A stretch of 47,865 nt of DNA from NCBI GenBank assembly GCA_964422885.1, contig CAYRDV010000002.1, forward strand, positions 1 to 47,865, in the 5' to 3' direction. Positions within the stretch are counted from its first letter, which is position 1. The number at the start of each line of letters is the position of its first letter. The notes under the pieces were generated by a model. The model worked only from the letters and a program-made list of their open reading frames with translations, had not been told where the DNA came from and did no database searches. Positions 11,519 through 44,749 of this stretch are shown in pieces. The position numbers and the translations under genes are program-made. This DNA is from an uncultured Candidatus Sericytochromatia bacterium. GTDB lineage: Bacteria > Cyanobacteriota > Sericytochromatia > UBA7694 > JACMQJ01.

Positions 11519-11563
11519 AAAAAACAAACCTTTCAAATTTAAATACTTAGTGAATTAAATGTT

Positions 11564-13867: not shown

Positions 13868-13902
13868 AAGGTAGGGACAGAACAGTGTTCTGTCCCTACC
13901 TT
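13868..13902. repeat. Palindromic element, GGACAGAACAgTGTTCTGTCC family, copy 1
   Basis: aaggtagggacagaaca-g-tgttctgtccctacctt with 17-bp arms, between convergent genes. Confidence 0.85.
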
Positions 13903-15768: not shown

Positions 15769-16776
15769 ATGCAAATACCCCCTCTGCTCAATAAAGTTTT
15801 ATCTTTTATCACAAAAAACAATCTTATCGAAGATAATGACCAAACTTTGTTAGGTGTTTCCGGTGGACCTGATTCAGTAGCATTACTTAATATTTTTTAT
15901 CAGTTGAAAAATATTTTAAAAATTACTATTGGGGTTGCTCATGTCAATTATAATCTGAGAAAAGATGCTTCTATTGAAGAAGAGCTTTATGTAAAAAAGA
16001 TTTCTGAAAAATATCAACTGCCTTTTTATAATCTATCCCTTAATTTAAAAGAACTTCCAAAAAATGGTTCGCTTGAAGATAACGCAAGAAATATCCGTTA
16101 TGATTTTTTTGAAAATGTCGCTTTGAAAAATAATTATAATAAACTTGTGCTTGCCCATAATGCCAATGATCAGGCCGAAACAATCCTGATGAAATTTATC
16201 AGAGGGGCTGTATCAGGTCTAAAAGGAATAGAGAGTAAAAGGGAATTTTCCCTAAAAAATAAAGAATTAATTTTGGTCAGACCATTATTATGTTTATCTA
16301 GAAATGAGATTGAATTGTATTGCCAGGAACAAAATTTATCTCCCAAAACAGATCTTTCCAATTTTGAAGATATTTATACCAGAAACAGAATAAGAAACAA
16401 GCTTATTCCCTTAATAATTGCTGAAAATCCAAATTTTTTAGAGGTTGCTGAACAAACATCCATAGTTCTAAATCAGGAGGATAAGTATCTGCAAAATATT
16501 GCCAGAGATGTTTTTACTAAAGCTTTTATAAAAAAGGATTCTGACAAAATAATTTTATCATATGCAGTTTTTAAAAATTTTGAAGATTGTATCCAAAGAA
16601 GAGTAATTAAAATTGCTTATCAGGAGCTTACCCAAAATACAAAAAGTTTTAGTTATAAAAACCTTGAAGCTATCAGAGAATGTATTACCAAAAACATTAG
16701 TAAAAAAGTAATTGGTTTACCTGATAATTATTTTTTTACCAAAGAAAAGGAACATCTTATTTTTTACAGACTGTAG
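15769..16776 (+). CDS. tilS: tRNA(Ile)-lysidine synthase
   Basis: 335 aa. PP-loop motif LLGVSGGPDSVAL. Overall TilS-like N-terminal ATP-pyrophosphatase domain. Confidence 0.9.
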   Translation: MQIPPLLNKVLSFITKNNLIEDNDQTLLGVSGGPDSVALLNIFYQLKNILKITIGVAHVNYNLRKDASIEEELYVKKISEKYQLPFYNLSLNLKELPKNGSLEDNARNIRYDFFENVALKNNYNKLVLAHNANDQAETILMKFIRGAVSGLKGIESKREFSLKNKELILVRPLLCLSRNEIELYCQEQNLSPKTDLSNFEDIYTRNRIRNKLIPLIIAENPNFLEVAEQTSIVLNQEDKYLQNIARDVFTKAFIKKDSDKIILSYAVFKNFEDCIQRRVIKIAYQELTQNTKSFSYKNLEAIRECITKNISKKVIGLPDNYFFTKEKEHLIFYRL

Positions 16777-16802
16777 GGACAGAACAGTGTTCTGTCCCTA
16801 CA
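16772..16802. repeat. Palindromic element, GGACAGAACAgTGTTCTGTCC family, copy 2
   Basis: tgtagggacagaaca-g-tgttctgtccctaca. It overlaps the tilS stop codon (16774-16776), between convergent genes. Confidence 0.85.
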
Positions 16803-18654: not shown

Positions 18655-20400
18655 TTAGGTTTTTAAAAGAAAGCCAATAATAAACCTGCCAAATTTATTC
18701 AGTAGCGGTAAAGCAGAAATGGTTTGTTTATTAGCAATTATTACTTCTTTATCAGTTATCACTTCAGGAACTGTAGTTTCACAGAAAATACCTATTTTGG
18801 AAAGCTTTGTAAGGCTGCTGCCAGTTATCATATTACAAATTTCGGCAATAAATGATTCATCCATTTTATTTGATTTCATATGATAAGAAACTATCAGTGA
18901 ATCCGTTAGATTTTCAAAAAAGCTGCGATCAAAAATATAAAACACCTGCCCATTTAAATTTCCACTGATATTAAAAGTGATACAAATAATATTAGTTAGA
19001 GGCGTATTAAATGATACTTTAGCAAACTTTCCCATTTCAGTTGGAAAATTAAGATAAGTACTTAAAACTTCATTAATAGAAGTAATAAATGATGTTTCAT
19101 AAGAAATTTTTGCCAGTATAGTATTGCACCATCTTAAAATTTTCAGACATTCTTCCAGATTTTCCTTAGTAAGGTATTTAAGTTCTACCAAAGCCTCACC
19201 TATATGCAACATTCGGTTAGCCAATTCATGGCGATATCTGAACGTTTCATCTATCTGAGCCTCGTTTACCAGCCCAAGCTCAACAGCAATCTGGCCAAAT
19301 TTTAACCAGGCTTCACGGGTTTCCAGCCCTTCATTTTTTCTATACAGCAGGAGTTCCTGAGCGTCTAGTTTCAGAATAAATTTAAAAAATTCCAGTTTAG
19401 AAAAGTTAAAGACCTTTTTATTATCTTCAAAAATTTTATATAGTGATGCATTGCCATCAATTATATTTAGCATCATAGCATAAGCCCGGTTCTCTGGTTT
19501 TGACATCAAAACCTTTGCTGCATCAGCCAGAATCGGTATTATAAAATCCAGGATGCTTCCTGCACTTTCAATAAGGCTTCTTTCAATTTTGTTATTCATT
19601 GAATTTGACTGGAGCATTTCAGTTAAAAAGAGAGACTTATCGATAAGATGTGCCAGCCATTTCTGAATTTTTAAAGCATCTCTTAAAACATTTTCGGTGA
19701 TAAATCTTAGTTCAATCATTGCCTCACCGATTAACATACCACTGGTTGTTTTTTTATAATTTGCCGCATTTCTGAGATTTACTTCATGAATAAGGTCACA
19801 TTCCAGCAATATATCCCCTATTTTTACCCAACCAGATTTTTTATTTATATTTTTTGTTTTAATAAAAGTAACAAGGCTAGCCATATCAATTTCCTGCATA
19901 TAAAGTAAAAATTCCAGAAAATTTTTATGAATATTATTTTTTTCAAAAATCTCAAAAACCGAAGAATGATTATCAATCATTTTTAAAAAAGAATAAATTT
20001 TGGTTGGAGTTGATAAATCATCCATAATAATCCGGCCTTTTTCAGTAAGTTTTGGGATTAAGGCTTTTGTTATCATTGTTAAAAAAGTAGGCTTTTCTGA
20101 ATCATCAGGGTTTGTAACAGGAACACTGGGATTTGTTGCGGTAACACTTATTTCCGATTTTGTAGCAACATTGGCTGAAGACCGGATTTCATTATTGTTT
20201 ATTTCTTTTTGCGATGATAAGTTTATTGCATGATGGGAGATAATATTTTTTTTAGTACTTTCAATTTCTTCTATTTTAGAGACTATTTCTTCTTTTATTC
20301 GCTCAATATGGCAGGCAAAGCCATACTTTGCACTTTCAGGCAAATATTCCGAGTATTCTGATAAAGTATCTATAATCTCAAAAATATGATCTTTAAGCAT
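18655..20400 (-). CDS. Multidomain protein: two MshEN/T2SSE_N-like modules plus a C-terminal CheC/CheX-like domain
   Basis: 581 aa.
- MshEN-like pairs: KIGDILLECDLIHEVNLRNA.. / LIGEAMIELRFITENVLRDALKIQ and KFGQIAVELGLVNEAQIDETF.. / HIGEALVELKYLTKENLEECLKIL
- C-terminus: SFIAEICNMITGSSLTKLSKIGIFCETTVP fits the CheC-family S-x3-E-x2-N-x(~22)-P site. Confidence 0.75.
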   Translation of the reverse strand: MLKDHIFEIIDTLSEYSEYLPESAKYGFACHIERIKEEIVSKIEEIESTKKNIISHHAINLSSQKEINNNEIRSSANVATKSEISVTATNPSVPVTNPDDSEKPTFLTMITKALIPKLTEKGRIIMDDLSTPTKIYSFLKMIDNHSSVFEIFEKNNIHKNFLEFLLYMQEIDMASLVTFIKTKNINKKSGWVKIGDILLECDLIHEVNLRNAANYKKTTSGMLIGEAMIELRFITENVLRDALKIQKWLAHLIDKSLFLTEMLQSNSMNNKIERSLIESAGSILDFIIPILADAAKVLMSKPENRAYAMMLNIIDGNASLYKIFEDNKKVFNFSKLEFFKFILKLDAQELLLYRKNEGLETREAWLKFGQIAVELGLVNEAQIDETFRYRHELANRMLHIGEALVELKYLTKENLEECLKILRWCNTILAKISYETSFITSINEVLSTYLNFPTEMGKFAKVSFNTPLTNIICITFNISGNLNGQVFYIFDRSFFENLTDSLIVSYHMKSNKMDESFIAEICNMITGSSLTKLSKIGIFCETTVPEVITDKEVIIANKQTISALPLLNKFGRFIIGFLLKT

Positions 20401-21808: not shown

Positions 21809-21843
21809 GTAGTAAGGACAGAACAGTGTTCTGTCCTTACTAC
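21809..21843. repeat. Palindromic element, GGACAGAACAgTGTTCTGTCC family, copy 3
   Basis: gtagtaaggacagaaca-g-tgttctgtccttactac, 17 nt after the aminotransferase stop. It differs from copies 1 and 2 by a paired G>A / C>T change that keeps the stem. Confidence 0.85.
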
Positions 21844-25268: not shown

Positions 25269-25943
25269 TTATTTAATTTTATCCGCAAAACGCTTTGTTA
25301 TTAAATGGGGCCTGGTAATCGCACTACCAATAACAACAGCATAGGCTTTTCTTTTAAAAGCTTCTTCAAGCTGAAATGGTTCCCAGATTTTTCCTTCCAT
25401 TATTACCGGAATTTTTAGTTTTTTTGTTAGCTTTGATAACAGCTCAAAATCTGGCTCATCAGATTGGGTACTGTATGGTGTATATCCTGATAAAGTAGTT
25501 CCGACCAGATCAAAACCAAATTCCTGAGCCTTAATACCTTCTTCATAAGTTGAAATATCAGCCATAGCAGGTAAATTAAATTTATGAATAAGTTTAATTA
25601 ATGATGGAATTTTCTCATCAAAAGGGCGTTTTCTCATTGTAGCATCAACCGCTATAATATCAGCGCCAGCAATAATAATAGCTTCAACTTCCTTTTGCGT
25701 TGGGGTAATATAAACATCTGAATCAGAGTAAATTTTTTTGTATAAACCAATAACCGGAACAGCAAAAAAATGCTTCATTTGCCTTACAGGTAAAGGACCA
25801 TTTGCCCTAAGAGCAGAAGCTCCACCTTCGATAGAGGCTTTTGCCATTGCCATAAGTGCTTCCGGGCTATAAAGAGGCTCTTCTGGCGAAGCCTGACACG
25901 AAACAATAAGTTTTCCTTTTAAGTTTTTTAAAACAACATTCAT
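25269..25943 (-). CDS. nanE: N-acetylmannosamine-6-phosphate 2-epimerase
   Basis: 224 aa. LIVSCQA .. IAVDAT .. GTTLSGYT .. VVIGSAITRP pattern typical of NanE. ATGA overlap with the upstream gene. Confidence 0.85.
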   Translation of the reverse strand: MNVVLKNLKGKLIVSCQASPEEPLYSPEALMAMAKASIEGGASALRANGPLPVRQMKHFFAVPVIGLYKKIYSDSDVYITPTQKEVEAIIIAGADIIAVDATMRKRPFDEKIPSLIKLIHKFNLPAMADISTYEEGIKAQEFGFDLVGTTLSGYTPYSTQSDEPDFELLSKLTKKLKIPVIMEGKIWEPFQLEEAFKRKAYAVVIGSAITRPHLITKRFADKIK

Positions 25944-26446
25944 CTGTTTAAGTAATGTTTGGCATATTCAACATAGTTTTCCCATGTCTTATGGATTAAT
26001 TTTAACTGGTCTTCAGTAATTTCTTTTTTTACCTTGGCTGGCATGCCAACAACCAGTGAATTGGGTGGGATCACTACACCTTCACCAACGAGTGCTCCTG
26101 CTGCTATTAGCGAGTTTTTACCGATTACAGCTCCTGTTAATACAGTTGCCCGCATCCCAATCAGAATATTATCTTCAAGAGTACACCCATGCAGAATAAC
26201 TCCGTGCCCCAGACTGACATTATTTCCCATTATTGCCGGATATCCGTGAACACAGTGAATAATAGAACCATCCTGAATATTACAGTTTTCTCCGATAATT
26301 ATTTCATCGACATCACCACGTAAAACAGATTGAAACCAGATGCTTGAATTTTTACCAATAGTTACTTTTCCAAGTATGTCAGCAGAGGGAGCAATAAAAA
26401 CGCTTTTATCAATTTTTAAATCATCATTTTTATATTTAAGGCTCAA
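25940..26446 (-). CDS. Gamma-carbonic-anhydrase-like left-handed beta-helix (hexapeptide repeat) protein
   Basis: 168 aa. Hexapeptide repeats. The pattern IWFQSVLRGDVDEIIIGENCNIQDGSIIH is typical of the YrdA/PaaY family. TTG start 7 nt after AGAGGA. Confidence 0.85.
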   Translation of the reverse strand: MSLKYKNDDLKIDKSVFIAPSADILGKVTIGKNSSIWFQSVLRGDVDEIIIGENCNIQDGSIIHCVHGYPAIMGNNVSLGHGVILHGCTLEDNILIGMRATVLTGAVIGKNSLIAAGALVGEGVVIPPNSLVVGMPAKVKKEITEDQLKLIHKTWENYVEYAKHYLNR

Positions 26447-26473
26447 CTAATTTTCCTCTTACAAAAACTAATA

Positions 26474-26710
26474 CTAATAATTTTTTTTTGTTTCAGGTGG
26501 AACAGTAATATCAACAGTAGTATTATCGATTTTAGTTAAACGGAATTCAGGTGTTTCATTTGCCCGGAATTTTTCAAGTAAACATTCATAGTGATAAAAA
26601 GCTAAATCATCAAGATTATAAATAACTTCATTTTTTAAATTACAATAACAAAAAAAGCATCTTATTTCTGTTTTTGGTATTTCTATTGCTACTTCTCTTA
26701 CTTTTTTCAT
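26474..26710 (-). CDS. Small hypothetical Cys-containing protein
   Basis: 78 aa, ATG start. CFFCYC ... YEC could be a small metal-binding knuckle. No family recognised. Confidence 0.5.
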   Translation of the reverse strand: MKKVREVAIEIPKTEIRCFFCYCNLKNEVIYNLDDLAFYHYECLLEKFRANETPEFRLTKIDNTTVDITVPPETKKNY

Positions 26711-26743
26711 TTTTTCCCTTAATAAATAATTTTTTTTAAAAGG

Positions 26744-26774
26744 CTATAAATGTGGTCTAAGATTACATTTATAG
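26744..26774 (-). terminator. Weak AT-rich hairpin after the methyltransferase gene
   Basis: ctataaatgt / acatttatag 10-bp stem with an 11-nt loop. Only a short T-run follows on the minus strand. Confidence 0.3.
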
Positions 26775-26819
26775 TCTCTAGCTAATTTTATTTGTTTTTT
26801 ACCAGTATGAAAAGAGGAG

Positions 26820-27641
26820 CTATATTTTTTTTCTTTCAAAGATATTGATATTATTAGTAAGCCAGTCAATTACCAAAGCTTCACGAAAAAGATTTTTTAT
26901 TTTTGTTGATTTCTCTTCCATATGGATAAAATTTTTATCTTCAAAAAGGCTTATCCAAAACTCATACGGCTGTTCATTTATATGACCAAAACCACCCTGA
27001 CCCGGAGGAGCTGAGCTAAAGATTATACGATTTGCATTGGTTGTCAGAAATTCAACCAGTTTTTCTGACATATCATTTGGAATATGTTCAGCAACTTCAA
27101 AACAGATTGCTGTATCAAATTTTTTTGAACATGGAGAATCCTGGCCAATTTCCCAATGATATGTTTTTACTATCGGAGAGCATAATTTAATGGCATCTTT
27201 GGAACTATCTAAACCAACAGAATCAATATTAAGTTTTTGAAACTGTTCAATGTAAATACCACAACCACACCCTATATCAATAATATTTTCAGGTTCTAAT
27301 ACATCCTTAATTATTTTACAGGCAATTTCTGCACTTGGATTTTCGAATATTTTACATAATGTATAAAAAGAAGTATTATAAGATTCGCTACCTTGTACAG
27401 GTTCATCCAGATCTTCGGGTTTATAATACATAAATTCTGTATCTGTATATCTGGATTTTATATTTTCCAGATCATTTTCTTCATGAACTATGTAATCATA
27501 CTTTTTTTTATCTAATTCCTCCAATAATACATTTTCAGAAGCTATAGATCTGATTTCATAAAAATCTTTTATACCAGAAAAAACATCATTTACAGTTTTT
27601 AACCTATTAAAATCCTGATAGAAAAAAATTAAACTTTTCAT
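26820..27641 (-). CDS. Class I SAM-dependent methyltransferase
   Basis: 273 aa. Motif I IIDIGCGCGIY. Post-I DSVGLD. FDTAICFEVAEHIP. Its ATG shares one nt with the TAA of the giant GT gene (TAATG). Confidence 0.8.
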   Translation of the reverse strand: MKSLIFFYQDFNRLKTVNDVFSGIKDFYEIRSIASENVLLEELDKKKYDYIVHEENDLENIKSRYTDTEFMYYKPEDLDEPVQGSESYNTSFYTLCKIFENPSAEIACKIIKDVLEPENIIDIGCGCGIYIEQFQKLNIDSVGLDSSKDAIKLCSPIVKTYHWEIGQDSPCSKKFDTAICFEVAEHIPNDMSEKLVEFLTTNANRIIFSSAPPGQGGFGHINEQPYEFWISLFEDKNFIHMEEKSTKIKNLFREALVIDWLTNNINIFERKKI

Positions 27642-30600
27642 TAAAAATCCTTTTTTACTGAGATAATTTCTTTCATTAAAATATCTATTGTCTTTTTATA
27701 TTCTTCTCTTGCTGGTAATTTTGCAATTTGCGATAAATTTTTTCGATCTTCAAGAGTATAAGTTTCTTTAAAATCAAAATAGTATTCTAAAGCCTGTTCA
27801 AGATGGTTTTGCTCCAGATAAAACATTATTAATTCTTTTAGAACTGGCTTATATCCAGTAGAAATTGAATGAGCCTGGTGCAGATAAATTACTGTTTTTG
27901 CCTGATCATTTAGCTGATTATAACAACGTCCTAATTCAAGGTTTAGCCATAATGTAATATTATCTTCAAGAGAATTAATTTCTAAAGGGTTAGTATTTCC
28001 GCTAAAAATCTGATCATACAAATACTCATAAATTTCTACAGCATTTTTTAAATCTCCAGATTTTCGGTTACAGTAACCGGCAAAAAACAAAGCATCCTGA
28101 AATGTTGGTGAAATATTTAAAATTTCTTCTATAAAAGGAAGAGATTTTTGATAATCCTGATGAATTACTATTAATTGGCGAATAATTTTAATCAGGATAT
28201 TACAATAAAATGAATTTTCTTTCGGTAATGATGTTTTATTAAAAAGTTCATATGAAATAATAAATGAATTAAGAGCCTGAGCATATTCTTTAATTGAAAA
28301 ATATAAATCACCAAGATGCAAATAGTAGTAATAATTATCTGGTAAATCACCTTCTTTTTTTATTGCATCATTTATTAATAAAATATTTTCATTTGCCTTA
28401 TTAGCCGAAATCACCTTTTTATCCACATTTAAAAAAGGGATATTAAGCACCTGCATTTGACCATCAGCTTTAAACAAGTGCTCAGCCACCGGGCGAACAG
28501 AGATAATTTCAAAATTATTTTTAAATAAGGAATCCTTAAATGATGAAACAGAAAAAATAAATTCAGTAAAACTTTCCAGATACTTCAGACAAAATACAAT
28601 TGGATTATTCTGGTAAGGTTGTTCTAACAAAAAAGGCAATAAATTTTTTTTACACTCTTCAGTTAAAAGCTCATTGGGTCCTAATGATAAAATCCAGTCG
28701 CCTGAAGCACTTTTATAAACTTCATTTTTAATTTTGCTATAATCATTCTCATTTGAAAATTCTAGTATTTTAATCTCTTTAGATTGGGCAAGGGGCTTAA
28801 GCCCCTTGTTGAATTTTTTGCAAATATCAACTGTTCTATCTGTTGAACCAGTATCCACTACTAATATTTCAGACGCTATTGGCAAAATATTTTTTAGCGA
28901 TTCTTCAATCTTTTTTTCATCATTTTTTGTAAAAATACAAACACTAACCTTTGGTGATAAAGAATTTACTTTTTTCCTTATTGGTTCTAATTCTTCAGGC
29001 GAAAATCCTTCCGTATATTCGACAATTTTTAAAAGCTTTAATAACGCCGATTTATATTGTGGTGATTCTGGTTCGAGCTTAATAATATTTTCATAACTCA
29101 TTTTATCCTGCTGTGAATATTGCATACCAGCCTGAGAATAATAAAAAACAGCTTTTTCAAGATTTTCTGCAAGTAAATAATAACGAAGAAGATGAAAAAT
29201 TACAGGCATAAATTTTTTATTGGAATTATAAAGATTTTCCAGATATGTTAAACCTTTTTCCTGATTACCCATTAGCAGATAACACCGACCAATTTCAAGA
29301 GAAACCATAAAATTAAGCTGTATACCAAGATTGTCTAGATTAAAAAGTTTGCTTTTCTGCTGTAAATTTATTGTTTTCTGATAATTTTTTAGAGCTTCTT
29401 CAAGCTTTCCGGTATGGTGCTGACAATATGCCCTAAAATAGTAAATATCAGGTAAATCAGGGACCAAGAATTCAAGCTTATCTATAAATTGTAGTGCATA
29501 TTTGTATTGCTCATGAATAAAAATAAGTACCTTAATAATGATAATCAAAGCGTTCGTACTAAACTTATAATCAGTTTTTTCTTTGAGTTGATTATAGGAA
29601 ATATTGTAGTATTCAACCGCTTTATCAAATTGTTTCAGTTCAGCATATGAATCAGCAATATAGTTATAGTAATAGTAATAATATTTATCTTTTTCTTTTT
29701 TATTTTTAATAGCGTCAAAAAGAATATTGATATATTTTTCTGTTTTTGTTCTTAATTCTTTTTCAGGTCTAAAATTTCCACGATGTAAAAAGGAAAAATC
29801 AGGACAATCAACTTTTCTGAGATTTCCTTCTTTTATTGCAAGATTCTCATGAATTGGGCTGATATAGTAAATACCATAATGATTCCGGAAAAGATTTTGC
29901 TGAAAATAGGAAGTATCAACCAGATTATTTTTCTTTGAATTTAAATTTTTAAAGCAAAAAGCAACTGGTTCATACTGAAATGGCGTTTCCAGTAAAAAAG
30001 GGATTAAATTTTTTCGGGTTTCTTCATTCAATATCTCGTCAGCGTCAATTATTAAAATCCAGTTTCCGGTAGCATGTTTTATTGACTCATTTCTGGCTTT
30101 GGCAAAATCATTTTCCCAGGTTGTTTCAGATACTTTTGCATATTTTGCAGCAATTTCCTTTGTTCGGTCTGTTGAACCTGTATCTGTCACTAAAATCTCA
30201 TGAGCAATCTGTAAAACACTTTTTAAGCAGGATTCAATGTATTTTTCCTCATTCTTTACGATAAGACAAACACTTATTGTCGGTTCTACAGGTGTTGCAA
30301 GCTCATCCAGCTTTTTTAAAACAGAGTCTTCTTCTTCTTTTAGCCAGCCTTTTATTTGTAATAAATTTTCCAAAAGTATAATTAGGGTTTCTTTATATAA
30401 ATAATCATGTTTGGGAACATTAATTCTAGACTCTAAAACATCCTTTCCCTCATCACCAAAAGTTATATTATTTTTTAGGTGATGGTTAATTGCTTCAGGT
30501 AAATCACCTTTTAACAAGTAGTATTTTTCTAATTGTAAAAGTACCAGTGAAGATTCAGGCGATAATCTATATGCTTCGGAAATATATAAGCCATATTTTT

Positions 30601-33283
30601 CTTCATTCCCATTGATAAAACAACATCTGGCTAGCTCAATATAAATACTGGGTAGAAGCTCTTTTTCCTGGGAAACAATACCAGGAAATAAATTTATTGA
30701 ATCAACATTTAAAAGCTTTAAGGCTTTTTCAAAACTTTGGATTGCCTCGCCAAAACGACTCATTTTTTCCTGACAAAATCCTTGATAAAACAATGAATCA
30801 GGAAAATTAGGGTTAATATTAAATAATTCATTTATAAAAGGTTCAGCTTGTTGATACTCCTGTAAATGTAACAGCAATTCTTCAGTTATTTTAAGCAGAA
30901 TATTTATAAATATTGGTTCATTGAAGTAATTTTCATTGACTGAATAATTTTTCTTGTATAGCTGGTAAGACTGAAAAAAATTATCAAAGGCTTCTCTGTG
31001 TTTATTAACAACTGAATATGATTTTCCCAGCTGGTATAAATAATAATAATTTTCAGGAGCCAACTTATTTTCAGTAATAATTTTTTCTAACTGATAAATA
31101 TATTTTTCATTTTTTTCTTTAATTTTTTCTTCACCAATCGCAGTTCCTTTATGAAAAATGGTTAGCTGAGGGCAATATTGATAAGAAAGGTTAGATTCTT
31201 TGCTATAAAGTTGTTCATGGATTGAGCCGGTGAATTCAAGTCCCCATTTTCTTTTGAAAATGGTATGTTTAAAATAGGAAACAGTTGATTTTGTTCCTGG
31301 TTTTTCGGCAAGATATCTGAAAAAATACACAACAGGCTTCTCTTGATCTGCTTTTTCTATTAAAAAAGGCAAAATATTTTCTTTTGTCTCATTTGTTAAT
31401 TCTTCATCAGCATCAATAACCAAAACCCAATCTCCAGTTGCATGAGATAAAGATTCATTTCTGGCTTTGGCAAAGTCATCTTCCCAGGTTGTCTGAAATA
31501 TTTTTATGAATTCCAAACTCTCCCCAGCCCTCTCTTGAGAAGAGAGGGAGTTAATTTGTTCTCCTCTCTTTGCAAGAGAGGAGTTAGAGGAGAGTTGAAG
31601 TTTTCTACAAATATCCAATGTTCGATCAGTAGAACCTGTATCCAGAATAATAATCTCATTTGCTATTGGTAAAACACTATTAAGACAGGATTCAATATAT
31701 TTTTCTTCATTTTTTACAATCAGGCAGACGCTTAGCGAAGCTGTAAATTCTGAAGTTAAATCTTTTATTTTCTTTCTTATTGCTTCAGACTCAACCGGGT
31801 TCCAGCCTTCAATACGGATAATTTTTAATAATAGCTTTACCAATACTTTTTTATATTTTGTTTCTTCAGGATTTAAATTCTTTATCAGGTTAATTTCATT
31901 TATTTCTTCAGGAGCTATTAGCTCTGTTTTTTGCAAATAAAATAAGGCTTTTTCCAAATCACTTTCTAACAGATAAAATTTTAAAAGGTGGTAAATTAAA
32001 GGCGTTGAATCATTATTAGTTTTATAAGCTGCCTCAAGGGTTGCTATTGCTTTTTCTTTATCATCTAATGCCAGATATGCAGTACTTAATTCAAGCAGTA
32101 GCATAGTAATAAGTGATTTATCCTGAGAAACTATTCCCAAGGGATTTAACTCTCTGTTATCAACAAATAGCTCCAAAATTCTTTCATAGTATGTAATTGC
32201 TTTCTCAGTTTTTCCCAGATTTTGCAAAGAATATCCATAATAAAAAAGGGCATCTGAAAAATCAGGCGAAATTTGCAATAGCTCATCCAAATATTTTAAG
32301 GCTTCTTGAAATTTCTGATGATTAAATATTAATTCAGAAATTATTTTAATGAGAATACTTCCATAAGCCAGGCTTTCTTTATCAAAATTTCCTATTTTAT
32401 ACAAATTATAAGATGTAAGAAATGCTTCCAGTGCTTTTTCATGATTATTCTGCTGAGAATACGAATTTCCAAGGTGATGATAATAATAATAGTTTTCAGG
32501 ATTTTCAGGCTCTTTTTCAATAATTTTTAGCAATAATGTTATGTATTTAATGCTTTTTTTTATTAAATCATCAGCTGATTTTAATGTTCCAAAATGATAA
32601 ACTTCAAAAAATGGACAGTTAATATTAATCAGGTCTTTTTCCGGTCTGTATAACTGTTCATGGATCGCCCCCCTAAAACTGATACCCATATTATTTTTAA
32701 AAAGAGCCTGCCTGAAATATGAGGTGACAAAGCCTCCCTGTTCCTGAGGATTTAGTACTTTGCAACAAAAAACAACAGGTTTTTCATCATAAGTATTTTT
32801 TTCTAAAAAAGCAGATAATTTTTTTTGGGTATCTTCAGTTAAAACTTCATCCGCACCAATATAAAGAATCCAGTCACCAGTAGCATACTTTAAAGATTCA
32901 TTTCTGGCTTTGGCAAAGTCATCTTCCCAGGTTGTCTGAAATATTTTTATGAATTCCAAACTCTCCCCAGCCCTCTCTTGAGAAGAGAGGGAGTTAATTT
33001 GTTCTCCTCTCTTTGCAAGAGAGGAGTTAGAGGAGAGTTGAAGTTTTCTACAAATATCCAATGTTCGATCAGTAGAACCTGTATCCAGAATTATAATTTC
33101 ATAAGCTACAGGTAAAAGGCTTTTTATGCAGGATTCAATATATTTTTCTTCATTTTTGGCAATAAGGCAGACGCTAATTTTCGGTCTTCCCGAAAACAGG
33201 GGCCCCTTTAGGGGAGTTAATTCTGTACTCGGAATCAGGGGCTCGGTATTCCCGGGAGTTTTTTTTGGAGTTATTAATCCCAC
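27641..33283 (-). CDS. Giant protein of four tandem family-2 glycosyltransferase + TPR modules
   Basis: 1880 aa, GTG start. Modules start near aa 36, 517, 1003 and 1446. Each opens (I/L/V)SVC(L/I)..KN(E/D)EK .. DTGSTDRT .. W..DFAKARNES and is followed by a TPR-like helical region (ENYYY.. motif). Confidence 0.85.
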   Translation of the reverse strand: MGLITPKKTPGNTEPLIPSTELTPLKGPLFSGRPKISVCLIAKNEEKYIESCIKSLLPVAYEIIILDTGSTDRTLDICRKLQLSSNSSLAKRGEQINSLSSQERAGESLEFIKIFQTTWEDDFAKARNESLKYATGDWILYIGADEVLTEDTQKKLSAFLEKNTYDEKPVVFCCKVLNPQEQGGFVTSYFRQALFKNNMGISFRGAIHEQLYRPEKDLININCPFFEVYHFGTLKSADDLIKKSIKYITLLLKIIEKEPENPENYYYYHHLGNSYSQQNNHEKALEAFLTSYNLYKIGNFDKESLAYGSILIKIISELIFNHQKFQEALKYLDELLQISPDFSDALFYYGYSLQNLGKTEKAITYYERILELFVDNRELNPLGIVSQDKSLITMLLLELSTAYLALDDKEKAIATLEAAYKTNNDSTPLIYHLLKFYLLESDLEKALFYLQKTELIAPEEINEINLIKNLNPEETKYKKVLVKLLLKIIRIEGWNPVESEAIRKKIKDLTSEFTASLSVCLIVKNEEKYIESCLNSVLPIANEIIILDTGSTDRTLDICRKLQLSSNSSLAKRGEQINSLSSQERAGESLEFIKIFQTTWEDDFAKARNESLSHATGDWVLVIDADEELTNETKENILPFLIEKADQEKPVVYFFRYLAEKPGTKSTVSYFKHTIFKRKWGLEFTGSIHEQLYSKESNLSYQYCPQLTIFHKGTAIGEEKIKEKNEKYIYQLEKIITENKLAPENYYYLYQLGKSYSVVNKHREAFDNFFQSYQLYKKNYSVNENYFNEPIFINILLKITEELLLHLQEYQQAEPFINELFNINPNFPDSLFYQGFCQEKMSRFGEAIQSFEKALKLLNVDSINLFPGIVSQEKELLPSIYIELARCCFINGNEEKYGLYISEAYRLSPESSLVLLQLEKYYLLKGDLPEAINHHLKNNITFGDEGKDVLESRINVPKHDYLYKETLIILLENLLQIKGWLKEEEDSVLKKLDELATPVEPTISVCLIVKNEEKYIESCLKSVLQIAHEILVTDTGSTDRTKEIAAKYAKVSETTWENDFAKARNESIKHATGNWILIIDADEILNEETRKNLIPFLLETPFQYEPVAFCFKNLNSKKNNLVDTSYFQQNLFRNHYGIYYISPIHENLAIKEGNLRKVDCPDFSFLHRGNFRPEKELRTKTEKYINILFDAIKNKKEKDKYYYYYYNYIADSYAELKQFDKAVEYYNISYNQLKEKTDYKFSTNALIIIIKVLIFIHEQYKYALQFIDKLEFLVPDLPDIYYFRAYCQHHTGKLEEALKNYQKTINLQQKSKLFNLDNLGIQLNFMVSLEIGRCYLLMGNQEKGLTYLENLYNSNKKFMPVIFHLLRYYLLAENLEKAVFYYSQAGMQYSQQDKMSYENIIKLEPESPQYKSALLKLLKIVEYTEGFSPEELEPIRKKVNSLSPKVSVCIFTKNDEKKIEESLKNILPIASEILVVDTGSTDRTVDICKKFNKGLKPLAQSKEIKILEFSNENDYSKIKNEVYKSASGDWILSLGPNELLTEECKKNLLPFLLEQPYQNNPIVFCLKYLESFTEFIFSVSSFKDSLFKNNFEIISVRPVAEHLFKADGQMQVLNIPFLNVDKKVISANKANENILLINDAIKKEGDLPDNYYYYLHLGDLYFSIKEYAQALNSFIISYELFNKTSLPKENSFYCNILIKIIRQLIVIHQDYQKSLPFIEEILNISPTFQDALFFAGYCNRKSGDLKNAVEIYEYLYDQIFSGNTNPLEINSLEDNITLWLNLELGRCYNQLNDQAKTVIYLHQAHSISTGYKPVLKELIMFYLEQNHLEQALEYYFDFKETYTLEDRKNLSQIAKLPAREEYKKTIDILMKEIISVKKDF
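28789..28808. repeat. 20-bp perfect palindrome CAAGGGGCTTAAGCCCCTTG inside GT module 4 (in frame, encodes KGLKPLA)
   Basis: Read directly. The same 23-bp string gcaaggggcttaagccccttgtt recurs intergenically at 44729-44751. Confidence 0.9.
31516..31596. repeat. Structured palindromic element (outer stem plus two CT-rich hairpins) embedded in frame in GT module 2
   Basis: - outer stem: aactctcc (31516-23) pairs with ggagagtt (31589-96)
- hairpin A: ccctctctt-gag-aagagaggg (31528-48)
- hairpin B: ctcctctctt-tgc-aagagaggag (31561-83)
Encodes LQLSSNSSLAKRGEQINSLSSQERAGESLEF. Confidence 0.85.
32959..33039. repeat. Identical copy of the structured palindromic element in GT module 1
   Basis: Lies inside the 201-bp tract 32891-33091, which is identical to 31448-31648 (offset 1443 nt). 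Confidence 0.85.
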
Positions 33284-33483
33284 TGTATTTTCCTGAAGCT
33301 TAAAGTAAATTTTATTTATTTAGTAGTTTATCATGATTCTGTTTAAAAAAATAAAATAAGGGTATTAAAATACTAGTGTTTAATAGTTATAATGAGAAAT
33401 AGTATAAAATTAAAATAATTCAGAAAAATTAAGCAAAATTGTAATAATTAAAGTAGTAAAAATTGGTGGATAGAAAGACTCAC

Positions 33484-34803
33484 ATGATAATGAAATTATC
33501 AAAGAAAATAGCTATTTTAGGCATTTTATCATTATTTATTTCTGTAACTTCGGGGTGTGACAGAGATATTCCGCTTGATTTTCAGGCCAGCGATTTTCAG
33601 CAGCAGCTCAAAAACACAGGTTTTAATATTTCTTCAACTTCCGGGCAAATTATTATTAAACGTAAAAAAGGAATAAATTCTTTTAATTCTATTTCTCCAG
33701 ACTTTAAAACAATAAAATCAATAAAAAATCTGAATGTTGAGGTCGTACAGGTTAAAAATTCAGGTTCAATGGATAATATTCTAAAAAATTTGAGAAATCA
33801 TCCTGGTGTAGAATATGCCTCTCCTAACTTTATCAGAAAGATCGTTTTACCAAAAAGAAGAAGGAGTACAATGCTGGCAGTAACTCCGATAAACCAGGGA
33901 ACTCCTGCTTCGACAGCAGGCTCTGATCCTATGCGTAAAGATCAGTATGCTCTTGATATTACTCATGCAGAGCAGGGCTGGAAAATTACCAGAGGTAAAG
34001 CAAATATCATTATTGCTATTGTTGATACAGGGATAGATCCTGAACATCCCGATTTAAAAGGTAAAACAGTTCCTGGTTTTAGTGCGATAAAAGAAAGTCA
34101 GACAGTAAAAGATGAAAATGGACATGGAACACATGTTTCGGGTATTGCTTCGGCTATTACAAATAATGCAGTTGGGATTTCGGGTATGGCCCCGAATTGT
34201 AAAATAATGCCGGTAAAGGTTCTTGATCACTCAGGTTCTGGTGATGATGCCGGTATAATTGAAGGCATTACCTGGGCAGCAGATCATGGGGCAGATATAA
34301 TAAGTATGAGTCTGGGCGGTGGTGGAACAAGTGAGGCTTTTGAAGAAGCAATTTCCTATGCTTTGAAAAAAAATGTGGTAATTATAGCTGCAATGGGGAA
34401 TGATGGTCAAAATATCGAAAATTACCCGGCAGCTTCCAAGGGGGTTATTGCTGTTGGTTCTACCGATGCAAAAGATAAAATTTCTGATTTTTCAAATTTT
34501 GGTAACTGGATAACTGTTTCGGCTCCAGGTACTCAAATTTTATCAACTTTTCCAACATATAAAGTTGATTTAAACAATGAAGGACTACCGCAAAACTATG
34601 CCACACTTGATGGAACCTCTATGGCAGCGCCTTATGTTGCTGGACTTGCGGCACTAATCAGGAGTAAATATGGAAAAATTTCCCCAGAACAGGTTAAAAA
34701 TATTATTATTAAAGGTGCAGATGATTTAGGCCACCCTGGTTTTGATGATTATTTCGGACATGGAAGAATAAATGTTTTAAAAACAATCTCTAATAATAGA
34801 TAA
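33484..34803 (+). CDS. S8 subtilisin-like serine peptidase with N-terminal propeptide
   Basis: Catalytic triad motifs VDTGID, HGTHVSG and GTSMAAPYVAG. Signal/lipobox VTSGC. The track starts at TTG 33463; ATGs at 33484 and 33490 are more plausible. Confidence 0.9.
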   Translation: MIMKLSKKIAILGILSLFISVTSGCDRDIPLDFQASDFQQQLKNTGFNISSTSGQIIIKRKKGINSFNSISPDFKTIKSIKNLNVEVVQVKNSGSMDNILKNLRNHPGVEYASPNFIRKIVLPKRRRSTMLAVTPINQGTPASTAGSDPMRKDQYALDITHAEQGWKITRGKANIIIAIVDTGIDPEHPDLKGKTVPGFSAIKESQTVKDENGHGTHVSGIASAITNNAVGISGMAPNCKIMPVKVLDHSGSGDDAGIIEGITWAADHGADIISMSLGGGGTSEAFEEAISYALKKNVVIIAAMGNDGQNIENYPAASKGVIAVGSTDAKDKISDFSNFGNWITVSAPGTQILSTFPTYKVDLNNEGLPQNYATLDGTSMAAPYVAGLAALIRSKYGKISPEQVKNIIIKGADDLGHPGFDDYFGHGRINVLKTISNNR

Positions 34804-34849
34804 TAATTTTAAGTTATCAAGCAATATTTGTAGTAAATTTATAAAAATA

Positions 34850-35341
34850 ATGAAATTAAAAAATAATTCAGGCTTTTCCCTGATAGAAGCAATGACAGTT
34901 GTAGTAATCCTTGCTGTTTTATTTGCGATTGCTATACCAAATTATATTAACGCTCAGGATCGAGCAAAGTACGCTAATCTAAAACTTAATATGACTATTG
35001 TCAGGACTTCTGTTGAAATTTATGCTTTAGATTGGGGAGGAGCTTATGCTGCCAATAAAACAGAGCTATACAATGAAGGAAAATCAAAAAAATATCTGAG
35101 AGATTTTAAAAACCCTTTTACAAATTCGGCAACAACAATCAAAGATGTTGGTGATATCCAGACAGACTCTGATTTGGAAGCAGGTCTTATTGTATATGGA
35201 AGTAGTGGTTCTGGTACCAGTCCAATAGTTAATTATTTTTCACCACCGGATTCTACCCGTATTTATGTAATTTATTCAATAGACAAAGATCTTTTACCTT
35301 TTAAAGAAAAAGGCTCTATATTTTATTTATCAAACGGATAA
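34850..35341 (+). CDS. Type IV pilin-like protein (prepilin-type N-terminal cleavage/methylation domain)
   Basis: 163 aa. MKLKNNSG|FSLIEAMTVVVILAVLFAIAIPNY is a class III signal with Glu at +5. Confidence 0.8.
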   Translation: MKLKNNSGFSLIEAMTVVVILAVLFAIAIPNYINAQDRAKYANLKLNMTIVRTSVEIYALDWGGAYAANKTELYNEGKSKKYLRDFKNPFTNSATTIKDVGDIQTDSDLEAGLIVYGSSGSGTSPIVNYFSPPDSTRIYVIYSIDKDLLPFKEKGSIFYLSNG

Positions 35342-36986: not shown

Positions 36987-37948
36987 TGAGTAAGATAAAA
37001 CAAATTACAAATACAGTACTGATGGTAAGGCCATTTGACTTTTGCTTTAATGAAGAAACAGCCCTTGATAATGAATTTCAAAACAGACCTACCGATTCAC
37101 AGGATGAAATCAACCGAAAAGCGCTGAATGAGTTTGAAAATATGGTACTTACTCTCAGGAAAGAAAATGTAAATGTTTTGGTTCTTGAACAGGGAACCAA
37201 TTTAGCTAAGATGCCTGATGCCGTATTTCCTAATAACTGGATTTCCACTGAACATGACGGAACAATTGTTACTTTTCCAATGGCAACTCCTAACCGGAGA
37301 GCAGAAAAGTTAAGATTACAGGATGCTGAAAATCTTTTCATGGAAAACCAATATCTGGTAAAAAATATAATAAATGTTGGCCCTTTAAGAGAACAATCAT
37401 TATTTCTTGAAGGAACAGGAAGTATGATAATAGATCATCCCAACAAAATCGTTTATATGGCTGAATCAATTCGTTCAAACCCTCTTCAGCTCAACAACTT
37501 TTTACACTTGAGAAATTATTCCCAATCTGTCATTTTTCAGGCTGCCAGTTCTGGTGGCAAGCCTATTTATCATACAAATGTAATTATGAGTATTGGTGAA
37601 AAGTTTGCTGTTATTTGCAACGATTGTATCATTTCTAAAAATGACAAGGATAAGTTACTTACAATACTTGGAAAAACACATGAAATTATTGAAATTTCAA
37701 TTGAGCAAATGGAAAATTATTTTTGTGGTAATATTCTTCAGCTTTCCTCAAATGATGGAAATCCATTAATTATAATGTCAGACTCAGCATTGACTGGTTT
37801 TAATAAATTCCAGATAGAAAAGCTGGAAAAGCATGGAAAAATTATTTCTGTTAACATCGATACAATTGAAAAAGTAGGTGGAGGGAGCGCCAGGTGTATG
37901 ATGGCAGAAGTATTTTTACCGAAGAAACTCTCCCTGACCCTCTCTTGA
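36986..37948 (+). CDS. Amidinotransferase-fold protein, arginine-deiminase-related (CtlX-like citrulline hydrolase candidate)
   Basis: 320 aa. TNTVLMVRPFDFCFNEETALDNEFQ N-terminus and GGGSARCMMAEVF catalytic-Cys motif. 1-nt TAATG overlap with arcA. The last 9 codons and the stop lie in a CT-hairpin repeat element. Confidence 0.75.
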   Translation: MSKIKQITNTVLMVRPFDFCFNEETALDNEFQNRPTDSQDEINRKALNEFENMVLTLRKENVNVLVLEQGTNLAKMPDAVFPNNWISTEHDGTIVTFPMATPNRRAEKLRLQDAENLFMENQYLVKNIINVGPLREQSLFLEGTGSMIIDHPNKIVYMAESIRSNPLQLNNFLHLRNYSQSVIFQAASSGGKPIYHTNVIMSIGEKFAVICNDCIISKNDKDKLLTILGKTHEIIEISIEQMENYFCGNILQLSSNDGNPLIIMSDSALTGFNKFQIEKLEKHGKIISVNIDTIEKVGGGSARCMMAEVFLPKKLSLTLS

Positions 37949-37959
37949 AAAGAGAGGGA
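37926..37959. repeat. Partial copy of the CT-hairpin element (ccctctctt-gaa-aagagaggg) forming the 3' end of the upstream CDS
   Basis: aactctccctgaccctctcttgaaaagagaggga versus aactctccccagccctctcttgagaagagaggga at 31516 (30 of 34 identical). The TGA stop at 37946-48 is inside the hairpin. Confidence 0.8.
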
Positions 37960-44729: not shown

Positions 44730-44749
44730 CAAGGGGCTTAAGCCCCTTG
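44730..44749. repeat. 20-bp perfect palindrome CAAGGGGCTTAAGCCCCTTG, intergenic copy
   Basis: Identical to 28789-28808. It lies just downstream of the 44767 gene stop. Confidence 0.9.

Follow-up and report, generated by a model that had tools for sequence, protein, structure and literature searches.

The DNA analyzed here, referred to throughout as the window, is a stretch of 47,865 nucleotides (nt) forming positions 1 to 47,865 of contig CAYRDV010000002.1 (assembly GCA_964422885.1), from an uncultured Candidatus Sericytochromatia bacterium. Its minus strand contains an uninterrupted open reading frame (ORF) of 1880 amino acids (aa), which encodes four tandem units that each combine a family 2 glycosyltransferase (GT2) domain with a helical domain resembling tetratricopeptide repeats (TPR), and which overlaps a downstream gene for a methyltransferase dependent on S-adenosylmethionine (SAM). 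The features of the locus are collected in Table 1. The tandem glycosyltransferase (GT) gene starts with GTG, preceded by a Shine–Dalgarno-like AGGA site ~8 nt upstream, and its base composition is even along the whole length. The Pfam model Glycos_transf_2 (PF00535) matches the protein in four separate stretches (263 bits, with a cut-off of 23.3; E = 1.5e-78), and about a dozen Pfam TPR families match as well, including TPR_2 (82.8 bits), TPR_19 (74.3) and TPR_12 (67.3). When the protein is cut at aa 30, 511, 997 and 1441, the resulting modules (M1 to M4) align end to end, with pairwise identities of 33–47% over ~440 aligned residues. Every module opens with an S[VI]C strand (aa 37, 518, 1004 and 1447) and contains one copy of DTGSTDRT (aa 67, 548, 1034 and 1477). 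The DxD site reads IGADE in M1 (aa 142–146), IDADE in M2 (aa 623–627) and M3 (aa 1079–1083) and LGPNE in M4 (aa 1534–1538), and M4 carries two further substitutions, NENDYSKIKNEV at aa 1511–1522 and VAEHL at aa 1599–1603. A preliminary description of this DNA had proposed four complete GT2 and TPR-like modules in a single frame; the parsing of domains with Pfam profiles and the end-to-end alignment bear this out, and all of the motifs that it quoted were found in their places. No hydrophobic segment of membrane-spanning strength was detected in the 1880-aa protein (maximum 19-aa Kyte–Doolittle mean of 1.52), which should therefore be cytoplasmic.

Table 1. Features of the tandem glycosyltransferase locus and its surroundings, in window positions (L001 is a positionally orthologous locus described in the text)
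Feature	Position	Strand	Remarks
Tandem glycosyltransferase ORF, 1880 aa	27641..33283	−	GTG start, AGGA site, Pfam matches, no predicted membrane segment
Module 1 (type A), aa 30–510, GT-A domain plus TPR-like helical domain	31754..33196	−	IGADE at 32846–32860; other near-invariant residues kept
Module 2 (extra module), aa 511–996	30296..31753	−	Canonical IDADE at 31403–31417; not in three-module relatives
Module 3 (type B), aa 997–1440	28964..30295	−	Canonical IDADE at 30035–30049; without the loop insertion
Module 4 (type C, conserved degenerate), aa 1441–1880	27644..28963	−	LGPNE at 28670–28684, NENDYSKIKNEV, VAEHL; HxG segment deleted
201-nt tract, copy 1, in M1 (aa 65–131)	32891..33091	−	Spans DTGSTDRT, a 30-aa loop insertion and WEDDFAKARNES
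201-nt tract, copy 2, in M2 (aa 546–612)	31448..31648	−	100% identical to copy 1
Pair of perfect GC-rich hairpins, in frame, within the loop insertion of M1	33004–33026 and 32971–32991 (within 32971..33026)		Hairpin scan
Same hairpin pair in M2	31561–31583 and 31528–31548		Hairpin scan
In-frame palindrome CAAGGGGCTTAAGCCCCTTG in the M4 loop	28789..28808		Codes for KGLKPL; identical intergenic copy at 44730–44749
Class I SAM-dependent methyltransferase, 273 aa	26820..27641	−	DIGCGCG motif at aa 122–128; ATG overlaps the upstream stop codon
Cys/His-rich small protein, 78 aa (CxxCxC...HxEC)	26474..26710	−	Conserved; the copy at L001 lies directly downstream of a three-module gene and is 73% identical
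Hexapeptide-repeat acyltransferase (25940–26446) and NanE-like N-acetylmannosamine-6-phosphate epimerase (25269–25943)	25269..26446	−	Downstream, same strand
S8 subtilase with lipoprotein-like signal (33463–34803) and prepilin-type N_methyl protein (34850–35341)	33463..35341	+	Divergent neighbors

The family and fold of the modules were established from sequence and model comparisons with solved structures. Among the PDB sequences, M3 matches the GT domain of GmaR (E = 1.4e-29, over M3 residues 2–199), SunS (E = 3e-20) and also ThuS. AlphaFold models of M3 and M4 (predicted local distance difference test scores, pLDDT, of 83.9 and 77.6, respectively) show a β/α domain of the GT-A fold followed by ~13 helices, confirming the presence of the fold for which the preliminary description had looked to structure prediction. 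The top Foldseek matches of both models are SunS and ThuS (E = 1e-15 to 1e-16), and the alignments to the full-length SunS and ThuS structures cover 360–400 columns (E = 1e-13 to 1e-16), encompassing the GT-A and the helical domain; other GT2 enzymes (TarS, TarP, SpsA and K4CP) are far weaker fold matches. In a residue census of the family that covered 381 GT domains more distant from the window gene, Asp occupies the first and the third position of the DxD site in 98% of the domains each, and the Trp of W..DF is conserved in 98%, the Arg of ARN in 91% and the His of HE in 85%. None of these near-invariant residues is missing from M2 or M3, which are, by this measure, catalytically canonical, and M1 departs from them only at the first DxD position (Gly for Asp). 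M4 has lost the Trp, both Asp residues of the DxD site and the His of HE, contains Lys for the Arg of ARN and Asp for the Glu of KNEE, and also lacks a six-residue HxG segment.

To place the modules relative to each other, orthology was assigned from a tree of 46 modules combined with pairwise identities. The closest full-length relatives of the protein, P0001 (1322 aa, 49% identical) and P0002 (1368 aa, 47% identical), are both metagenomic and are complete genes of three modules. M1 (type A) is orthologous to the first modules of P0001, P0002 and the two-module protein P0084 (49–56% identity), M3 (type B) to the second modules of P0001 and P0002 (54–57%), and M4 (type C) to the last modules of P0001, P0002 and P0084 (43–52%). 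The three-module relatives and the two-module proteins P0082–P0084 are built from repeats of the same kind of module as the window gene, and the nearest relatives differ from it in lacking M2 and a coupled methyltransferase. M2 is basal to the type A clade, with 48% identity to M1 and 42–43% to the other type A modules, and its helical half is just 34–36% identical to that of any type A module (34% to M1). As it branches outside the group of M1 orthologues, M2 is either fast-evolving or an extra A-like module that predates the divergence of the three-module lineages, in which it would have been lost. A separate 622-aa GT2-TPR gene at L001 was considered as the missing M2 orthologue and ruled out, being ~31% identical to M2.

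The deviant catalytic sites follow the module types. Across its members the type A DxD site reads IGADE, LGADE, IGADE, MGADE and VGADE, and that of type C reads LGPNE, INPNE, VNPNE and AGSGQ; four near-invariant catalytic residues and the HxG segment are missing in all type C orthologues. Degenerate DxD sites also occur in the second modules of P0083 (IDGNQ), P0085 (LKGNE) and P0113 (MQANH), and the two-module relatives P0083–P0085 and P0113 likewise end in a DxD-degenerate module. Because they are common to orthologous modules, the deviant sites are old, maintained states rather than stages of a progressive erosion. The preliminary description had read the four modules as two intact units, one weakened and one dead, arranged in graded catalytic decay; the residues do give two canonical modules, one atypical and one dead, but the decay series does not survive the comparison, since both the Gly of M1 and the dead site of M4 characterize conserved module types of the two- and three-module relatives. 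Conservation within the modules carries the distinction further. In types A and B, orthologues are 59–67% identical in the GT half and 45–50% in the helical half, which argues for selection on catalysis, whereas in type C the GT half (49–53%) is no more conserved than the helical half (46–49%). M4 is therefore best read as a conserved pseudo-glycosyltransferase, in which structural constraint appears to have been kept and catalytic constraint lost.

M1 and M2 have in common a 201-nt tract, the two copies of which are 100% identical and lie 1443 nt apart; outside it, the two modules are 25–42% identical at the protein level. The same pattern is found in P0082 and P0083, in which the first ~120 residues of adjacent modules are 55–100% identical and the remainder 20–55%, and together the two observations point to gene conversion limited to the N-terminal half of the GT-A domain. 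It is this half that binds the nucleotide sugar in GT-A enzymes. With their donor-binding halves in common and their acceptor-side helical halves very different, M1 and M2 probably use the same nucleotide sugar as donor and recognize different acceptors.

The palindromes inside the gene always lie in the variable loop behind the DTGSTDRT helix, and every other hairpin in the window whose stem measures 8 bp or more is intergenic. Intergenic copies of the gene-internal palindromes (37938–37958 and 44730–44749) form terminator-like hairpins at gene ends. The in-frame copies look like small dispersed palindromic elements colonizing a surface loop of the glycosyltransferase; the Rickettsia palindromic elements (RPEs) and the small dispersed repeats of cyanobacteria are comparable. 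A GC-rich element of ~60 nt, coding for ...SPPxPLSPGLGASKEGEE..., occupies the same loop in the GT genes of L001 (6941–7177), L086 (8278–8339) and L002 (10230–10285). Its DNA is 92–97% identical across GT genes and samples, the surrounding proteins being only ~35–70% identical, and a further copy at L002 (15533–15583) lies outside any GT gene; both properties support an element that is mobile or conserved at the DNA level. Elsewhere in the window, the hairpin GGGACAGAACAGTGTTCTGTCCC has three intergenic copies (13874–13896, 16776–16798 and 21815–21837, the third beginning with A), each between convergent or adjacent genes, and represents a repeat family resembling repetitive extragenic palindromes (REP) or terminators. 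In a promoter and terminator scan, promoter-like sites were no commoner than in shuffled sequence.

GT2-TPR proteins had been taken to be single-module enzymes in the preliminary description, and public data were surveyed for tandem forms. A single-module query against 1.84 billion representative sequences returned 39,280 relatives at E ≤ 0.001; in the close clade (at least 40% identity) of this collection, no four-module protein was found besides that of the window. In a set of 224 retrieved proteins, which is biased to high summed scores and in which GT domains were counted with a hidden Markov model (HMM) built from the window modules, 131 have at least two GT domains: 94 have two, 35 have three and 2 have four, namely P0095 (1513 aa) and P0003, a protein of 2742 aa with four strong domains and two weak ones. 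A sample that was not selected for length, consisting of 114 related ORFs in 80 species-representative genome loci, gave one domain in 105, two in 8 and three in 1, so that 9 of the 114 are tandem; one of the two-domain ORFs belongs to a locus of Paenibacillus assamensis DSM 18201 (L026). Scanning genome contigs with the module alignment gave mostly distant relatives (33% identity at best) and no close one, and exact look-up found neither the full 1880-aa protein nor P0082 on record. The tandem relatives carry generic glycosyltransferase labels at most, and literature searches gave no description of tandem GT2-TPR enzymes. Single-module proteins are the rule, those with two or three modules are a substantial minority, and those with four are rare; the idea of an exclusively single-module family must therefore be dropped. 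Of the novelty attributed to the window gene, what stands is that four-module forms are rare and that none is apparently characterized, while shorter multi-module versions are fairly common elsewhere. The window gene is the rare extreme of an abundant, apparently unstudied tandem architecture.

The methyltransferase ORF matches Methyltransf_23 (36.7 bits against a cut-off of 27) as well as Methyltransf_12, Methyltransf_25 and Methyltransf_11. Its ATG overlaps the TAA of the glycosyltransferase gene in a TAATG junction (27639–27643, context ...TTTTAATGAAA...), and this junction is reproduced in an independent contig, L083. Methyltransferase domains also recur with the relatives of the tandem gene: among 81 homologues, 11 carry a class I domain and 5 an FkbM-type domain in the same chain, and the fused domain of P0040 matches the window methyltransferase directly. 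The two-module gene at L086 is directly adjoined by a Methyltransf_23 gene; the enzyme that the latter encodes is only remotely related to that of the window (21% identity over 76 aa), so the recurrence there is one of function class, not of orthology.

Among the neighboring genes, the prepilin-type protein has a 53% identical orthologue that is likewise divergent beside the three-module gene at L002, and none at L001. The preliminary description had named this pilin-like protein and the local lipoproteins as candidate substrates; the tandem enzyme has no membrane segment, and the pilin-like gene is kept at only one of these two related loci. L001 is positionally orthologous to the window locus, with arginine deiminase (ADI) and dimethylarginine dimethylaminohydrolase (DDAH) genes and the 78-aa ORF downstream in common. 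The 78-aa protein has 16 other homologues in the database, all metagenomic, all of ~78 aa and 64–87% identical, and is far better conserved than the neighboring glycosyltransferase; no Pfam or PHROG family was found for it. Its ORF is linked to a glycosyltransferase in the window, at L001 and probably on the P0226 contig. As a candidate acceptor it was set aside, as it has no GT neighbor at L088 and resembles a small zinc-binding protein without a leader peptide. The hexapeptide acyltransferase and NanE-like genes may supply a donor sugar. At L086 and L002, genes for a 2-oxoglutarate (2OG) oxygenase and a radical-SAM/SPASM protein lie near the glycosyltransferase gene, which hints at protein or peptide modification. 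L086 also encodes a 759-aa fusion of Glycos_transf_2 and radical-SAM domains (401–2680), clustered with a second radical-SAM protein, a 2OG-Fe(II) oxygenase, a methyltransferase and the two-module GT2-TPR gene; together, these genes may serve to modify peptides or proteins.

The rest of the window contains several further genes of note. Two adjacent minus-strand genes (6106–8856 and 8879–11536) encode proteins of 916 and 885 aa that each have an FGE-sulfatase (formylglycine-generating-enzyme-like) domain at the end, and one of the two also has TIG domains. In a 581-aa protein (18655–20400, minus strand), a CheX chemotaxis-phosphatase domain at the C-terminus follows 470 N-terminal aa that match no recognized family. 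SBBP and lipoprotein genes at first suggested a spirochaete host; this was rejected, as the closest named homologues of an ArsA/GET3 protein in the window, at 77–79% identity, belong to Candidatus Sericytochromatia and Cyanobacteriota metagenome-assembled genomes (MAGs). With the near-identical contig L083 from Hainich groundwater, this points to a Sericytochromatia-like host living in groundwater.

We consider that the locus probably holds an intact gene, from a Sericytochromatia-like genome of the non-photosynthetic Cyanobacteriota, for a soluble cytoplasmic protein or peptide glycosyltransferase composed of four tandem SunS/GmaR-type units, with a mechanism that we infer by homology. Each unit consists of a GT2 catalytic domain of the GT-A fold followed by its own TPR-like helical domain, the part that gives acceptor specificity in the characterized SunS/GmaR-type relatives. 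A protein or peptide acceptor would be glycosylated in the cytoplasm, at several sites or in several steps, by two or three active modules, with the dead C-terminal module acting as a structural or acceptor-binding partner. The translationally coupled methyltransferase would methylate the glycan or the same substrate, and recombination between the repeated modules would change the module number. GT2-with-TPR genes serve as predictors of flagellin glycosyltransferases (PMC13317340), and in the wider family a flagellin gene was found within 10 kb in 27 of the 80 genome loci (tblastn with Bacillus subtilis Hag). Several results weigh against such an assignment. The same tblastn query found no flagellin in the window or at L001, L002, L083 or L086–L088, and Pfam scans of the flanking ORFs revealed no glycocin precursor, C39/ATP-binding cassette (ABC) exporter or thiol-disulfide oxidoreductase. 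The best NCBIfam model for the whole protein is indeed the SunS family (TIGR04195), at a score (232.3 bits) under the 350-bit equivalog cut-off, and the structure predictions for M3 and M4 were built from only 10 sequences. The M1–M2, M2–M3 and M3–M4 junctions are known from one assembly alone. Finally, the sequence of the methyltransferase does not assign a substrate class, and its gene is absent at L001 and L002, the two nearest orthologous loci; the coupling emphasized in the preliminary description thus holds for the overlapping junction and for the recurrence of methyltransferase domains with relatives, and does not extend to these two loci.

A more elaborate version of the same proposal, which we hold only tentatively and judge doubtful, describes a recombining single-chain glycosylation array that would place the same sugar on several distinct sites or substrates. 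Gene conversion would keep the donor-binding halves of adjacent modules identical while the acceptor-side halves diverge. The conserved dead terminal module would be an obligatory partner, the fused equivalent of a SunS-type dimer (SunS-type enzymes form dimers), and the module number (2, 3 or 4) would shift by unequal crossing-over seeded by the in-frame loop palindromes.

One alternative is that the four-module build is partly an artefact of assembly, whereby the 201-nt repeat together with a mixture of strains added a module to a three-module gene, or two genes were joined. The nearest relatives have three modules, no identical full-length protein is on record, and the only other assembly of the locus is fragmentary: L083, an ENA contig of 2485 bp from Hainich groundwater well H51 with a coverage of ~2, is 99.96% identical over window positions 26407–28855, a span that takes in the methyltransferase, the TAATG junction and 1.2 kb at the 3′ end of module 4, and it breaks off within M4. 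Nothing in the window matches its first 36 nt, although they read through into ...VLDTGSTDRT; heterogeneity among strains, or a contig end that is chimeric at the conserved motif, may be the cause. Together with the perfect 201-nt repeat (copies 1443 nt apart), this second assembly leaves some room for a mis-join. However, the frame is intact across 5.6 kb, the gene composition is uniform, and the 1.2 kb between the repeat copies is unique sequence that codes for a full M1 helical domain and a normal inter-module linker like those at the other junctions. M2 copies no other module and, being so distinct from M1 outside the tract, must sit in the genome beside such sequence; moreover, the independent relatives P0082 and P0083 display the same homogenized N-terminal tract in adjacent modules. 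We therefore consider an artefact to be quite improbable.

With the gene taken as intact, its product could instead be a multi-domain glycan synthase, comparable to WbdA, WbbB, K4CP and PmHS2, which are multi-GT polymerases of O-antigens or capsules, or to the wall-teichoic-acid glycosyltransferases TarS and TarP. Its modules would act in turn on a growing oligosaccharide, polymer or glycolipid, with the TPR regions as scaffold and the methyltransferase adding a methyl cap at the end, in the manner of WbdD. Several GT domains in one chain together with a methyltransferase are the pattern of ABC-transporter-dependent O-antigen systems, and TarS, TarP, heparosan synthase and K4CP are among the weaker fold matches (E = 1e-5 to 1e-7). 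Two genes of sugar metabolism, for the hexapeptide acyltransferase and NanE, follow the locus on its own strand, and an ABC-2 permease is encoded 9 kb away. However, the nearest relatives in sequence and fold, by many orders of magnitude, are the protein and peptide glycosyltransferases GmaR, SunS and ThuS, and every module keeps its own SunS-like helical domain. Pfam scans revealed no polysaccharide export, polymerase or priming-transferase genes among the flanking genes, unrelated genes separate the ABC-2 permease gene from the locus, and the acyltransferase and NanE genes are absent at L001 and L002, leaving a glycan synthase unlikely in our estimation. A third possibility is a TPR scaffold or regulator that is mainly non-enzymatic, its GT activity vestigial or secondary. 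A scaffold role is frequent among large TPR arrays, one module is certainly degenerate and another atypical, and the idea has a parallel in GmaR, which is bifunctional, its C-terminal part being a MogR antirepressor (PMC9638930). Such a role seems very unlikely for the window protein: M2 and M3 hold all of the near-invariant catalytic residues, the stronger conservation of the GT halves in types A and B noted above counts against it, and the modules span 440–486 aa, compared with the 637 aa of GmaR, which has a linker and antirepressor domains beyond its TPR region, a comparison of lengths made with no direct search for an antirepressor-like region.

The preferred assignment, a tandem protein or peptide glycosyltransferase, rests on likeness to two known systems in particular. 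SunS and ThuS (GT2; PDB 7MSN, 7MSP and 7MSK; TIGR04195) have the same two-part build as each window module, a GT-A domain with a helical TPR-like domain, and the aligned SunS sequence has the W.NDF..ARN and IDAD motifs in common with the window module. They are S- and O-glycosyltransferases of glycocins, single-module enzymes of ~420 aa, whereas the window protein fuses four modules, one of them dead; furthermore, their genes stand beside those for a precursor peptide, thiol-disulfide oxidoreductases and a C39-ABC exporter, none of which was found in the window flanks. Among solved structures, GmaR (PDB 22ao) is nearest to the GT domain in sequence, over ~200 aa, and KNEE, DTGSTD, WENDFS.ARN, IDADE and IHEQL are aligned between the two. 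It is the flagellin O-N-acetylglucosamine (O-GlcNAc) transferase and MogR antirepressor of Listeria monocytogenes, has a GT2 domain followed by TPRs, and acts in the cytoplasm (PMC9638930). In contrast to the window protein, GmaR has one GT domain with its linker and antirepressor domains and belongs to the flagellar regulon; the window modules are shorter and have no flagellin gene nearby.

The closest described analogue of a pathway that adds several sugars and a methyl group, which is the functional picture drawn in the preliminary description, is the type B flagellin system of Clostridioides difficile. There, a methylated O-glycan is assembled on a single protein by PF00535 enzymes acting together with a SAM methyltransferase; the genes are GT1, GT2 and GT3, of which GT2 is a GT2–methyltransferase fusion that adds and methylates rhamnose (PMC5207246). 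Its transferases are encoded by separate genes beside fliC, whereas those of the window form one fused chain, with a helical domain in each unit and no flagellin gene. Enzymes with two or three GT domains in one polypeptide are known from glycan synthesis, namely WbdA of Escherichia coli O9a/O8, which is partnered by the methyltransferase terminator WbdD, K4CP and PmHS2. K4CP and PmHS2 are weak fold matches to the window module, far below SunS and GmaR, and the domains of WbdA, K4CP and PmHS2 come from differing GT families or subfamilies, act on glycans and have no TPR-like acceptor module per domain. The architecture of the window protein is not unique, as two- and three-module forms are common, four-module forms rare and none apparently studied. 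Cytoplasmic protein glycosyltransferases of the GmaR/SunS type, which are of interest for glyco-engineering, are known only as single-module enzymes; in the window locus and its relatives, two to four such units have been fused repeatedly, often with a conserved inactive last unit and homogenized donor halves. If the modules act on different sites with one sugar, the family would offer a natural template for glycosylating proteins at multiple sites with a single polypeptide, and also a clean case of pseudo-enzyme partners and of concerted evolution inside one gene.

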